Origin: Clostridiaceae bacterium
GTDB lineage: Bacteria; Bacillota; Clostridia; CAYPLH01; DUMO01
Assembly: GCA_012839865.1 (NCBI GenBank)
Contig: DUMO01000013.1
Span: 1-64,000, forward strand
Length of the DNA: 64,000 bases
Direction: 5' to 3'
How positions within the stretch are numbered: the first letter of the stretch is position 1; every line of letters starts with the position of its first letter. A program made the translations under genes and the position numbers. Under the pieces are notes generated by a model that was not told where the DNA came from, searched no databases, and worked only from the letters and a program-made list of their open reading frames with translations. Positions 28,572 to 33,616 of this stretch are shown piece after piece.

Positions 28572-29267
28572 TTGAACGAAAAGATACTTATTGTCGATGA
28601 TGAGAAAAATATAGTCGATATTCTCAAGTTCAATCTAAAAAAAGAAGGGTTTGACACTATTGAAGCTTATGACGGAGAACAGGCAATCATGAAAGCTAAA
28701 AATGAAAAGCCTGATCTTATACTTCTTGATATAATGCTGCCCAAAATGGATGGATTTACTGTGTGCAGAAAGCTCAGGGAGACGAGTAATACACCGATTC
28801 TAATGCTTACTGCAAAGGAAGAGGAAGTGGACAAGGTATTAGGTCTTGAGCTTGGTGCAGATGATTATATTACAAAACCCTTCAGCCCAAGAGAACTTAT
28901 GGCCCGTGTCAAGGCAAATTTAAGAAGAATAGTTGCAGGGAATGCCAATGAGAACAACAACAGCAATACAATTACCTGCAAGGACCTGTGCATTGAAGTT
29001 GACCGGTACCAGGTTACCCGTTCAGGTGAACCGATTGAGCTCACTTTAAGGGAATTTGAGCTTGTAAAATTCCTTGCCATGCAACCCGGACAGATTTTTA
29101 CCAGAGAAAATTTATTGGAAAAAGTATGGGGATACGAGTATTACGGTGATGTCCGCACAGTGGATGTTACAATAAGAAGACTTCGGGAAAAGTTGGAAAG
29201 AGACCCGGGAAAGCCGGAGTATATATTGACAAAACGTGGAGTAGGGTATTATTTCAGCAAAGATTGA
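28572..29267 (+). CDS. walR: OmpR-family response regulator, WalR/YycF-like
   Basis: Receiver domain (LIVDDE, D at LLDIMLP, K in TAKEEE) plus a winged-helix C-terminus. Probable TTG start 28572 after GGGGTGAG. The ORF is open from 28515. Confidence 0.75.
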
Positions 29268-29270
29268 GGG

Positions 29271-29966
29271 CTAATCCCATATTGATCCCGGATTTAAGCC
29301 AAAAAGCATGTTTGCAGCATGCTGTCCTTTTGACCTGGCAACTATACTGTATGCTTTTGAATAGAACTCGTCATAATCTTCTGCGCAGTGTGCATCTGAG
29401 GCAATATAATCAATAAGGTTGTTGTCCAGAAGAAACATTGCCAGTTTTTTTGAGTTTTTTCCGTTAAAGCCCGTAAAACTTCCGGCATCAACCTGAACAG
29501 GGATATTTTCGCTCAAAATACGTTCCAGGGCAATCCTGTTCTGCTGCAGTGCCAGATTTCTTTCGGCGTGGGCAATTATTGGTACAATGCCTTGTAATTG
29601 CAGATTATATAAGGTTTCCTTAGTGAAAAAGGGAATCCTGTCATAAGGGAATTCAACCAGCAAACTTTTTGAATTTTCAATAAGCAATTCGTCACTTTCT
29701 TTGACGATTTCCGTAAGTGACGGGTCGATGCGAACTTCTGTGCCCCTGAAAATTTTTATATCCAGGTCGGAAACCTTGCTTCTAAGCTCATTCAGATTTT
29801 CATCAACTTTTTTAAAAAAATCTGTTTTATTATACCGGTAGTGAGGAGTGGCAACGATTATTTTTATTCCAAGCTCTACAGCTTTGTATACCATTTTTAT
29901 GGACTCTTCCAGGGTTGAGGGCCCGTCGTCAACACCGTGAATAATATGGCAATGAATATCTACCAC
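29271..29966 (-). CDS. cpsB: PHP-family protein-tyrosine phosphatase (CpsB/YwqE-type)
   Basis: N-terminal MVDIHCHIIHGVDDGP metal-binding motif and PHP domain histidines. Confidence 0.85.
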   Translation of the reverse strand: MVDIHCHIIHGVDDGPSTLEESIKMVYKAVELGIKIIVATPHYRYNKTDFFKKVDENLNELRSKVSDLDIKIFRGTEVRIDPSLTEIVKESDELLIENSKSLLVEFPYDRIPFFTKETLYNLQLQGIVPIIAHAERNLALQQNRIALERILSENIPVQVDAGSFTGFNGKNSKKLAMFLLDNNLIDYIASDAHCAEDYDEFYSKAYSIVARSKGQHAANMLFGLNPGSIWD

Positions 29967-30097
29967 AATACCAACTCCAAATATAGAAGTAGTTATCTTG
30001 AGTTTTTCCTAAAAGCAGGTTAAGTGCATTAAAAATTCGAAACTGTTGCTATTAAAGCACTGGATGCAGCATATGATTGAACCATTTAACCTGTTGC

Positions 30098-30850: not shown

Positions 30851-31520
30851 CTTCGGCAGTCCTTATCTTATCGTCGAAATATTCCACAAAGAGAATCAAA
30901 CCGACAGCCGATAAAACCCCCAGAAAGAATGCTATGGCAATATTGAGCAAGGGCTTTGGCTTTATAGGGCTTGAGGGAATAATAGCCTTGTCTACTATGG
31001 TTATGTTTTCTATGCTTATAATTTCCGTTATTTTCTCCTTGAACACATTGGCAAGTTCATTGGCAATGTTGCATGCAAGTGCCGGATTTTTGTCCTGCAC
31101 CTTGATTTCGATAAGTCGCGTATCGTTTATGGCGTTAACTGTTATGCGCTCCGCAAGTTGTGCGGCACTAATGTTCTGAAGGTCAAGCTTTTTTATGACA
31201 GGCTCTGTGAACATGCGGCTTTTAATCAAAACACGGTAGTCACTTACAAGCTGGGAACTGAGTGTCAGGTCGCTGTATGCCAGAGGAGCGCCTTCTTTTT
31301 TTTCGTTGACGTATATGGTTGTGCTTGTTTCATAAACCGGATCCATAAGGTACAGGCTTACCATACCTGTTATAATACTGAAAATAAGCGGAATTAATAT
31401 GATCAGCCATATTTTTCCTATGAGAAGTTCAAGTATTTGTTTTAAATCCATTTCCTCCATGCCGGAAAATGATGTCGTGTTAGAATTTGTATTTAGTGTT
31501 GTATTCGATATTGTATTCAT
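30771..31520 (-). CDS. cpsC: Wzz/CpsC-type chain-length determinant (BY-kinase transmembrane modulator, YwqC-like)
   Basis: Two TM helices flanking a periplasmic Wzz-like domain; overlaps cpsD by ~80 nt in an operon. Confidence 0.8.
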   Translation of the reverse strand: MNTISNTTLNTNSNTTSFSGMEEMDLKQILELLIGKIWLIILIPLIFSIITGMVSLYLMDPVYETSTTIYVNEKKEGAPLAYSDLTLSSQLVSDYRVLIKSRMFTEPVIKKLDLQNISAAQLAERITVNAINDTRLIEIKVQDKNPALACNIANELANVFKEKITEIISIENITIVDKAIIPSSPIKPKPLLNIAIAFFLGVLSAVGLILFVEYFDDKIRTAEDAEKLGIPLLGTVPEYTNEWGDSKND

Positions 31521-31783
31521 GTAAAAATTATCCCCTTGTGAAGCTTTTCATCGGGCGGTGTTATTTTTGGAAATCCGCAATAACACATACAAATATTGTT
31601 TTTTGTTCGTGTATGTACGAATAAAATAATAAATAATATAATAAATATATTTTTTCGTCAATAATTTACATCAATATTCAGAATTCGATTTTTGCCAGCT
31701 GTACCGCCTTTATTTAACTTGTCTTATTTTATTTACAATTAACTTTACAAACACTATAATTTAATCAAATAGCTTTTTTTGAG

Positions 31784-33616
31784 GTGGCTATGTTTAGGAA
31801 TTTTCTCCGAAGTCTGCAATGGAGGCTTGTTTTTATTTTCATATCAATTTCAATTGTTCTTGTGGTTGTGATATGGGTGTTTCTCACAAAGTCAGTGGAA
31901 ACATACAATTACAATAAATTTGCAGCCGGAATAGAAGATGGTTTTAAAAGACATGCTGCTGAGTGGAAGGATGCAGACATTCAATATGTGGTTGAAGACC
32001 TCAAATACAGGAATGTGGCAAAAAATGATTTTTTACTGATAAATAAATATAAAACCTATACCATATTCGATAAGGAAACCCAGGAAATAGTCAGTGACGC
32101 CCAAAGCGGCGAACCGGCCACATCTGAAAAGGAAAACAGCGAACTTATCAATGGAATATACAGGTCGGAAAATTTCATATCCGTCCTTGCAGATGAAAAG
32201 GATATAGGAAATAAAGCCATTCTCTACAACAACGGAAACAATCCTTATTTTGATTATGCCAGGGAATTGATGATAAATGACAAGGCATATATTTTTTATT
32301 TCCGGTATTACAGGGAAGAATTCCTGGACCAGATACTGGAATTCAACCGTATTATCATAAACGGCCTGGTTATCGCGATAATTGCCTCCCTTCTGGTAGG
32401 GTATGCAATGTCACGGACAATAACAGTTCCCATTATAAGGCTGATGCACCGTGCAAGAAGAATCGCGTCAGGTGATTTCGACCAGGTCCTTGAAGTAAAA
32501 TCCCAGGATGAAATAGGTGCTCTTACAAATACATTCAACTACATGGCGATCGAGCTTAAGAGGACCCTTAATGAAATTTCCCGTGAGAAGAACAAGGTGG
32601 AAACTCTGCTCAACTACATGACGGATGGTATTATAGCCTTTGACATGTCCGGTGATGTAATTCATATCAATCCGGCTGCAAAAAAAATGCTTGACCTGAA
32701 TGAGCCGGATTATAAATTCACGAGCTTTTGCGAAAAATACGGACTTGACATCAACCTTGAGGAAATAACATATCTGGGTGACACCGGGATCCGGGAGACA
32801 AGTATTTCTTTTAAAGATAAATTTTTAAGGGTTTACTTTGTGCCCTTTGTAAACAAGGATAAAAATGCCGAGGGATTGATTGCTGTTCTTCAGGATATAA
32901 CCGAGCAACAGAAACTTGAAAACAGCAGAAAGGAATTTGTGGCCAATGTCTCCCATGAGCTCAGGACGCCTCTTACGTCAATAAAAAGCTATACCGAAAC
33001 GCTCCTGGACGGCATGGTGGAGGATACCGAAACCGCTTACAATTTCCTTAAAGTAATAGACTCTGAAGCCGACCGCATGACAAGAATTGTTAAAGACCTG
33101 CTCCAATTGTCGCGAATGGACAACAAGTCCCTGCAACTTAATAAAAAGTGGATTCGGGTTATCGACCTTGTGAAAGAATGCATCAAGAAAGTGGAGCTTA
33201 AGGCAAGGGGAAAGAAACAGGACCTGGAAAACTATGTTATTGGAGAAATTCCCTTAATACTGGCCGACCATGACAGGATTGAGCAGGTGGTTTTAAATAT
33301 ACTCAGCAATGCAATAAATTACACTCCTGAGGGCGGCAGCATAGTTGTTTATGTCGGCAGGATTTATAGTGATGTGTATATAAAAGTGGCGGATACGGGA
33401 ATCGGAATACCCGAAGCGGATCTGGAAAGGATTTTTGAGAGGTTCTACAGGGTTGACAAGGCGCGCTCCAGGGAGTTGGGAGGAACCGGTCTGGGACTTT
33501 CAATAGTAAAGGATATTGTAGAGCTCCACGGGGGCCATGTCTCAATAAAGAGCGCGGAAGGCCAGGGAACGGAAGTGACTGTGACATTGCCGGTTAATAA
33601 TACCCAGGGTGTCTGA
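31784..33616 (+). CDS. walK: Sensor histidine kinase WalK/PhoR-like (TM-extracytoplasmic-TM, HAMP, PAS, HisKA, HATPase_c)
   Basis: H-box HELRTPLTSIKSYTETL, N-box ILSNAINYTPEGG, G1 DTGIGIP, G2 GGTGLGLSIV. Confidence 0.85.
   Translation: MAMFRNFLRSLQWRLVFIFISISIVLVVVIWVFLTKSVETYNYNKFAAGIEDGFKRHAAEWKDADIQYVVEDLKYRNVAKNDFLLINKYKTYTIFDKETQEIVSDAQSGEPATSEKENSELINGIYRSENFISVLADEKDIGNKAILYNNGNNPYFDYARELMINDKAYIFYFRYYREEFLDQILEFNRIIINGLVIAIIASLLVGYAMSRTITVPIIRLMHRARRIASGDFDQVLEVKSQDEIGALTNTFNYMAIELKRTLNEISREKNKVETLLNYMTDGIIAFDMSGDVIHINPAAKKMLDLNEPDYKFTSFCEKYGLDINLEEITYLGDTGIRETSISFKDKFLRVYFVPFVNKDKNAEGLIAVLQDITEQQKLENSRKEFVANVSHELRTPLTSIKSYTETLLDGMVEDTETAYNFLKVIDSEADRMTRIVKDLLQLSRMDNKSLQLNKKWIRVIDLVKECIKKVELKARGKKQDLENYVIGEIPLILADHDRIEQVVLNILSNAINYTPEGGSIVVYVGRIYSDVYIKVADTGIGIPEADLERIFERFYRVDKARSRELGGTGLGLSIVKDIVELHGGHVSIKSAEGQGTEVTVTLPVNNTQGV

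Follow-up and report, generated by a model that had tools for sequence, protein, structure and literature searches.

A walR-walK locus parted by an inverted tyrosine-kinase trio in a narrow clade of uncultured Clostridia

WalRK is the master system of cell-wall homeostasis in Firmicutes, and the genes for its response regulator, walR, and its sensor histidine kinase, walK, are nearly always co-transcribed. A stretch of 64,000 nucleotides from a Clostridiaceae bacterium (assembly GCA_012839865.1, contig DUMO01000013.1, positions 1 to 64,000 of the forward strand; hereafter the window) raises the question of how these two genes came to be parted, and whether what lies between them has any bearing on their function. 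The ortholog of walR (yycF), which encodes an OmpR-family regulator of 231 aa (28572-29267, plus strand), is followed by three genes on the minus strand, coding for a CpsB/PtpZ-like PHP phosphatase (29271-29966, 231 aa), a CpsD/PtkA-like bacterial tyrosine kinase (BY-kinase; 30098-30778, 226 aa) and a CpsC/TkmA-like Wzz/GNVR transmembrane modulator (30771-31520, 249 aa); the walK ortholog, encoding a kinase of 608 aa, comes only after them (31790-33616, plus strand). In the open reading frame list of the window the gap between walR and walK measures 2,522 bp and is occupied by the three antisense genes, and this list, together with Pfam and NCBIfam, bears out the placement of all five genes in a first-pass annotation made from the letters alone. 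Every component belongs to a known family, and it is their arrangement that is new; the paper searches made turned up no earlier account of a wal locus divided in this way. The explanation that is considered quite probable is that one ancestral rearrangement put the inverted trio between walR and walK, and that the two genes still encode a cognate pair, now expressed from separate transcription units.

The identification of regulator and kinase as WalRK, which the first-pass annotation had argued from the genes downstream, is supported by family models, orthology and gene order. The regulator carries the Pfam domains Response_reg and Trans_reg_C and scores 352 bits with the NCBIfam YycF equivalog, above its cutoff of 340. 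For the kinase the top NCBIfam family is WalK, aligned across model positions 1-594 of 594 with 498.6 bits against a cutoff of 725, and WalK is also the NCBI annotation of this protein of the metagenome-assembled genome (MAG). Its Pfam domains are HAMP (residues 209-259), PAS_8 (271-310), HisKA (382-447) and HATPase (495-605); two hydrophobic transmembrane segments (about 14-34 and 186-208), judged by eye from the translation, lie around an extracytoplasmic domain. It is the context that decides: the genes following walK are those of the wal locus (yycH, yycI, murA and yycJ), and the two proteins are 76-77% (WalR) and 54-55% (WalK) identical to those encoded by the adjacent walR-walK genes of Acetivibrio saccincola, A. 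cellulolyticus and Pseudoclostridium thermosuccinogenes. Thus, they appear to be the WalRK pair, orthologs of the adjacent genes of Acetivibrio and Pseudoclostridium. The walR start codon is TTG, preceded by the ribosome-binding site GGGGTGAG. For walK, ATG at 31790, located 5 nt past a GAGG, is a likelier start than GTG at 31784 and agrees with public gene calls; the GTG start of the first-pass annotation was rejected, since an exact look-up of that protein gave no match, whereas the ATG version is on record.

It could be argued that the two proteins are not partners at all, and that two orphan components of different systems became neighbours by chance: their genes are neither adjacent nor co-oriented in a single operon, and the kinase scores under the cutoff of the WalK model. 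However, both genes are positional and sequence orthologs of a pair that is adjacent in all close relatives. The regions that determine partner specificity are also conserved, since the first helix (alpha1) of the WalK DHp domain around the phospho-accepting His389, H-box included, is invariant in 21 orthologs, from split or unsplit loci, and the alpha1 region of WalR is nearly invariant; thus, there is no sign of a changed partner specificity. Moreover, the window encodes just one more OmpR-type regulator, 43% identical to WalR, and this one adjoins its own short kinase of 292 aa in an ordinary pair (51238-52844, minus strand). A chance meeting of two orphans is accordingly held to be highly improbable.

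If the pair is genuine, the next issue is whether the split is real and how far it extends. Metagenomes of biogas fermenters and related sources contain the exact WalK protein on 11 public contigs. Of these, six were read (L001-L006, from independent ENA, JGI and Logan assemblies), and each that reaches far enough has the identical arrangement. The order walR, inverted trio, walK recurs in two further lineages. The first, represented by contigs L087 and L089, has identities to the window of 78% for WalK, 86% for WalR, 78% for CpsD, 71% for CpsC and 57% for CpsB; in the second, L090, WalK is 67% identical and the genes upstream of walR are different. Overall, the WalR of the window is 84-86% identical to those of these split-clade relatives. 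Clade membership is limited to only four protein clusters out of 5.8 billion proteins for WalK, and likewise for CpsD, outside of which identity falls to about 57% in the next WalK matches and to about 60% in those of CpsD. An adjacent walR-walK pair, with the downstream genes ordered as in the window, is present in all six relatives examined with WalK identity of 57% or less, namely A. saccincola, A. cellulolyticus, P. thermosuccinogenes, two MAGs and Petroclostridium. Comparison with related Clostridia therefore finds the split in three lineages and an unsplit pair in the relatives at or below 57% WalK identity.

The rarity of the arrangement was also evaluated on two control sets. A scan of 185,579 genomes with the WalK alignment, based on the universal H-box and G-box patterns, had mostly unrelated kinases among the matches listed, and it serves as a control and not as a survey of relatives; a metagenome scan with CpsD, based on the Walker B pattern, had one clade member among the matches listed. 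Among the matches listed in the first scan, a regulator was directly adjacent in 71 of the 79 other histidine kinase loci, in agreement with the earlier statement that regulator and kinase genes normally stand side by side, and cps genes were found in none of the 79, either between regulator and kinase or nearby. Likewise, no WalK-like neighbour was present in any of the 79 other BY-kinase loci among the matches listed in the second scan. The nearest CpsD homologs outside the clade are found in ordinary Wzz-kinase-phosphatase modules, beside a nucleotidyl-transferase gene on L094 and heading a glycosyltransferase cluster on L095. The L094 module (7314-9499), a second trio with a CpsD 58% identical to that of the window, comes from the same metagenome sample as L005 and has no glycosyltransferases. 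The same organism may carry it as a paralog, or it may come from another species.

These data also bear on a technical or trivial origin of the split, that is, an assembly chimera or a recent insertion of a mobile element. Such an origin might be suspected, as the window derives from metagenome-type data and the trio runs opposite to the genes around it. However, the identical order recurs in independent ENA, JGI and Logan assemblies and in diverged lineages, and no flanking direct or inverted repeats, no transposase or integrase and no GC or compositional break were found around the trio. An artefact or recent insertion is thus extremely unlikely, even more so than a chance pairing of orphans, and an origin of the trio from a mobile element was rejected on the same grounds of transposase, flanking repeats and composition. 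The split is a real, inherited gene-order variant of a narrow, uncultured biogas-reactor clade related to Acetivibrio/Herbivorax. Because it is confined to three related lineages and is absent in the more distant relatives examined and in the control loci, the best fit is one rearrangement, particular to this lineage, that took place in the clade's ancestor. As to the source of the trio, polysaccharide genes are found directly upstream of walR in other members of the family: genes for CapD-like, Ugd and DegT proteins in L092, for a CapD-like protein in L096, and for Wzy and Wzz in L093. This location makes it plausible that the trio was supplied by a local reshuffle of an adjoining surface-polysaccharide locus.

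The trio itself is an intact module. The phosphatase matches Pfam CpsB_CapC with 168.9 bits (cutoff 27), and alignment with relatives reveals conservation of its metal-binding and catalytic motifs HxH, DDG, ATPH, AHxER and SDAH. The BY-kinase scores 226.5 bits with TIGR01007 (cutoff 108) and presents the Walker A motif GKTT, the Walker A' motif VDCDLRKP and the Walker B motif IIDTPP, as well as a C-terminal tyrosine cluster with the tail YGNYYSYYYYNE, all of which are kept in L087 and L090; the tyrosine cluster that had been read from the letters is therefore confirmed. The open reading frame of 250 aa that extends to 30850 is probably overlong for this kinase, the public gene calls giving 226 aa. 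The modulator exceeds the cutoffs of Pfam Wzz (66.8 bits) and GNVR (38.6 bits) and remains under that of TIGR01006 (177.9 bits, cutoff 296); its gene is directly upstream of the kinase gene and overlaps the kinase start by 8 nt, and an internal Met at about 31460 could be its true start. On their own strand the genes run in the order Wzz modulator, kinase, phosphatase. Thus, the cpsB-cpsD-cpsC module of the first-pass annotation is correct as an intact set of three families, while the order is the one of tkmA-ptkA-ptpZ and not the streptococcal cpsB-C-D.

The trio has remained intact, with its catalytic motifs conserved, in each of the three split lineages. It may be regarded as a tyrosine autokinase system that is presumably active, its targets being a polysaccharide machinery or further substrates whose genes lie elsewhere. 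A search of about 10 kb to each side of the trio detected no family of glycosyltransferases, flippases or polymerases, and neither a Wzy-type cluster nor an initiating transferase; because no polysaccharide-synthesis family was detected nearby, the module resembles the stand-alone TkmA/PtkA/PtpZ system more than the head of a capsule operon. A multi-pass membrane protein of 441 aa encoded upstream of walR (25734-27059) has no Pfam or NCBIfam match, and it might be an unrecognised flippase or polymerase.

The separation of walR from walK raises the issue of how each gene is transcribed. Upstream of walR (28474-28493, plus strand) a perfect WalR-box repeat, TGTTAC-N5-TGTTAT, overlaps an extended -10 element, TGtTATAAT; this ancestral promoter region is conserved upstream of walR in L087, L090, L091 and L092, and weakly in L093. 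The spacer between cpsC and walK (31521-31789) is an AT-rich region of 270 bp. Here, a promoter-like site on the plus strand, TTTACA-17-TATAAT, which matches 11 of 12 positions (31732-31760), is located 30 nt upstream of the walK ATG, with homologs at 7941-7969 in L087 and at 7930-7958 in L090; in all three split lineages it forms a conserved island in an otherwise divergent spacer. This conservation argues for an independent walK promoter, which may have arisen with or after the rearrangement, and the possibility that regulator and kinase have separate promoters, already considered in the first-pass annotation, is thereby supported in silico. Facing the trio, on the minus strand, a second promoter-like site (TTGACG-17-TATTAT, 31633-31661) is a consensus match and is not clearly conserved in relatives. 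Within cpsD, a strong TTGACA resembling a promoter element (30321-30294), recurring in L090 and L087, was discarded as a coding coincidence, because it coincides with the Walker B codons for I-D-T. In L087, directly upstream of the Wzz gene (7530-7640), runs of the tetranucleotides (TTGC)n, (CCTG)n and (TAAC)n are present that have no counterpart in the window; they could be phase-variation tracts.

Taken together, these elements outline how the locus would work. In the ancestor of the clade, a TkmA/PtkA/PtpZ-type module would have been inserted, in inverted orientation, between walR and walK, and the two products would have remained a single cognate cell-wall two-component system, with WalK still passing its phosphate to WalR. 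Transcription of walR would start from the ancestral promoter with its WalR-box-like repeat, and that of walK from its own sigma-A-type promoter in the 270-bp spacer, back to back with the promoter region of the trio; a third unit, comprising the genes for the small protein p174, YycH and YycI downstream of walK, would be transcribed from a conserved promoter with a WalR box. Some points weigh against this picture. The promoters and terminators are consensus matches whose total counts are not above those of shuffled controls. The kinase falls below the NCBI cutoff for WalK, as reported above, and its cytoplasmic part barely reaches the cutoff of the PnpS model (400.7 bits against 400), a model that describes the cytoplasmic part only. 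The material consists of contigs and includes no complete genome; another gene of the WalK or WalR type may therefore exist elsewhere. Finally, the order walR-trio-walK has been kept in L090 in spite of differing upstream genes, and selection for linkage is possible as opposed to neutral inheritance.

This last point leads to the alternative that the embedding is functional, with the trio wired into WalRK signalling. Several routes can be envisaged, such as a shared divergent control region by which walK and the trio would be co-regulated, transcription that converges on walR or runs antisense to it, or tyrosine phosphorylation of WalR or WalK, and the outcome would be a coordination of surface-glycopolymer production with peptidoglycan hydrolysis. 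The maintenance of the walR-trio-walK unit in three lineages, even with different upstream genes, is in line with this view, as is the lack of polysaccharide genes near the trio, which recalls the multi-substrate PtkA module of Bacillus subtilis. In addition, walR and cpsB converge in the window species to stop codons separated by just 3 nt, and no clear terminator is seen there: the sole terminator-like feature between the two genes is a weak palindromic hairpin within the 3' end of cpsB (29305-29323), a weak consensus match on both strands. Precedents are also available in the literature. In a B. subtilis tagTV mutant, deletion of tkmA lowers the elevated WalRK signalling (PMC11888478); in Streptococcus pneumoniae cpsA and walK are synthetically lethal (PMC13463712); and in Streptococcus pyogenes WalR is tyrosine-phosphorylated by the kinase SP-TyK (PMC8689070).

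Other observations argue against it. The spacer between cpsC and walK contains no WalR box, at zero or one mismatch, and no perfect box occurs in the corresponding spacers of L087 or L090; control of the trio by WalR is hence unsupported. In L087 the convergent walR and cpsB genes leave a gap of 316 bp, and in L090 one of 57 bp, with no convincing terminator at this junction in either; the tight 3-nt junction is therefore specific to the window species. No association was found in the 79 other histidine kinase loci or in the 79 other BY-kinase loci of the control sets, among the matches listed, and there is thus no sign of repeated selection in the other lineages sampled. As for the precedents, cpsC of S. 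pneumoniae, unlike cpsA, shows no such interaction with walK (PMC13463712), and SP-TyK is not a BY-kinase. Since the association does not recur elsewhere and no WalR box is present at the trio, coupling is not to be assumed. A functional embedding is unlikely overall, and a coupling of the capsule or exopolysaccharide system, or of the tyrosine-kinase module, to WalRK is a hypothesis, made plausible by recent literature, to which roughly the same or a slightly lower probability is given. Slightly less likely than a functional embedding in general is its more specific form, in which the trio would have been recruited as an accessory input to WalRK that reports the state of surface-glycopolymer export, acting through walK expression from the shared divergent promoter region or through tyrosine phosphorylation of WalR or WalK. 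The preferred explanation remains a single rearrangement that left a cognate pair with separate promoters.

Indications of WalR control are found elsewhere in the locus. Using the consensus TGTWAH-N5-TGTWAH, three perfect putative WalR boxes were identified in the window, against 0.56 expected, and all of them are located in intergenic regions of the wal locus. Besides the one overlapping the walR promoter, a perfect box, TGTAAT-N5-TGTAAC (33794-33810, plus strand), lies 10 nt upstream of a TATAAT sequence, before the p174-yycH-yycI genes. Seven related loci have a perfect box at the equivalent position (10158-10174 in L087 and also in L089, 9847-9863 in L091, 9828-9844 in L092, 9827-9843 in L093, 11855-11871 in L007 and 11786-11802 in L027), that is, in every examined relative whose contig extends beyond walK. 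This conservation indicates that p174-yycH-yycI is probably a WalR-controlled unit throughout the family, and it suggests that, in Acetivibrio-type Clostridia, WalR may control its own modulators YycH and YycI through an internal WalR-dependent promoter. The third perfect putative box (36957-36973, plus strand) is 53 nt upstream of murA; at this position no perfect box was found in the relatives. Just past the walK stop codon, a GC-rich, near-perfect hairpin of about 120 nt was also observed (33640-33760), with a minimum free energy of -73 kcal/mol for the 181 nt between 33610 and 33790 and z = -3.35. It is not alignable to L087 and could be either a species-specific terminator or an insertion resembling repetitive extragenic palindromes or miniature inverted-repeat transposable elements.

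The genes that follow walK, all on the plus strand, complete the wal locus. The first one throughout the family codes for p174 (33906-34430), a conserved small secreted protein with no Pfam or NCBIfam match. Then come the ortholog of yycH (walH; 34465-35946), whose product has no direct Pfam or NCBIfam hit and aligns over its full length (BLASTP E = 9e-59) with an A. saccincola protein bearing Pfam YycH_N, and a yycI (walI) homolog (35956-36813; Pfam YycI, 48.7 bits, cutoff 29.7). They are followed by murA (37026-38279; NCBIfam PRK12830, 600.8 bits) and by yycJ (walJ; 38322-39113), which encodes a hydrolase of the metallo-beta-lactamase fold (Pfam Lactamase_B_2) that is 62-64% identical to the product of the Acetivibrio gene at the same position. 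The rlmH gene was located by tblastn with the Acetivibrio RlmH (49149-49625; 62% identity over 159 aa). Of the gene series yycH-like, yycI-like, murA, yycJ and then rlmH reported in the first-pass annotation, the first four are thus confirmed, while rlmH lies about 10 kb past yycJ in the window, being directly after it in L091, L092, L093 and L096.

The interval between yycJ and rlmH (39220-49060) is filled by a second clade-specific block, which parts two genes that are adjacent in Acetivibrio. It includes a DUF5305 protein, a fusion of 400 aa with an S26 (SipW-like) peptidase, faintly camelysin/TasA-like proteins and a NarL-type regulator/kinase pair (46104-48460, minus strand), and its overall make-up suggests a biofilm-matrix locus. 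L087 shares at least the genes closest to yycJ, the p222 homolog and DUF5305. Directly upstream of this HisKA_3 kinase/NarL regulator pair a cyclic-di-GMP-II riboswitch was detected (48791-48874, minus strand; 71.3 bits, cutoff 53.5). Two-component systems under the control of a cyclic di-GMP riboswitch are uncommon. On the other side of the locus, the region upstream of walR (23499-28234) contains a VanZ-family gene, an APH-type kinase gene, the gene for the 441-aa membrane protein mentioned above and one for a DacA-like D-Ala-D-Ala carboxypeptidase. Apart from VanZ, which is past the L087 stretch that was fetched, these genes also occur upstream of walR in L087; none of them is present in L090. 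Regarding structured RNAs, the Rfam search gave no family within 28-34 kb; farther away, a T-box leader (6028-6271, minus strand; 109.7 bits) lies near a TwoAYGGAY RNA (6455-6610, minus strand; 50.6 bits).

A lineage in which walR and walK are stably uncoupled would imply that a fixed co-expression of regulator and kinase is not obligatory for WalRK. The clade thus offers a natural case for asking how the stoichiometry of the two proteins is held with their genes apart, and whether a tyrosine-kinase/co-polymerase module feeds into wall sensing, as recent genetics in B. subtilis and S. pneumoniae would suggest. Should the trio be coupled to WalRK after all, the locus would represent a natural, genomically hard-wired form of the glycopolymer-WalRK cross-talk that is emerging in B. 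subtilis and S. pneumoniae; if the rearrangement is neutral, it would amount to a minor note of comparative genomics.

The locus can be compared with four known systems. The walR-walK-walH-walI-walJ locus of B. subtilis and Staphylococcus aureus shares with it a regulator matching the YycF model, a kinase with two transmembrane segments, an extracytoplasmic domain and HAMP, PAS, DHp and CA domains, the YycH, YycI and YycJ homologs downstream, and TGTWAH-N5-TGTWAH boxes within the locus. It differs in that here three antisense genes split walR from walK, p174 and murA are present and the kinase is below the WalK cutoff. Orthologous genes in the same order walR, walK, p17x, yycH, yycI, murA and yycJ are found in A. 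saccincola, A. cellulolyticus and P. thermosuccinogenes (L091-L093), which also share the promoter block of walR and the WalR box conserved downstream of walK. However, in these species an empty interval of 23-87 bp parts walR from walK, in place of the 2.5-kb trio, and rlmH directly follows yycJ, while in the window clade about 10 kb are interposed. With the streptococcal CpsB-CpsC-CpsD system the trio has in common its three protein families, namely a PCP2b co-polymerase, a BY-kinase and a PHP phosphatase. In streptococci, the genes are arranged as phosphatase-modulator-kinase behind cpsA and head the capsule operon, whereas no LCP ligase, initiating transferase, flippase or polymerase was detected near the trio of the window. 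Finally, the tkmA-ptkA-ptpZ(-ugd) module of B. subtilis differs in that the window trio has no adjoining ugd or known substrate gene and is located inside a two-component locus; conversely, the two modules share the order of a Wzz-like activator, a separate BY-kinase with a tyrosine cluster and a PHP phosphatase, and both are found outside any glycosyltransferase cluster.

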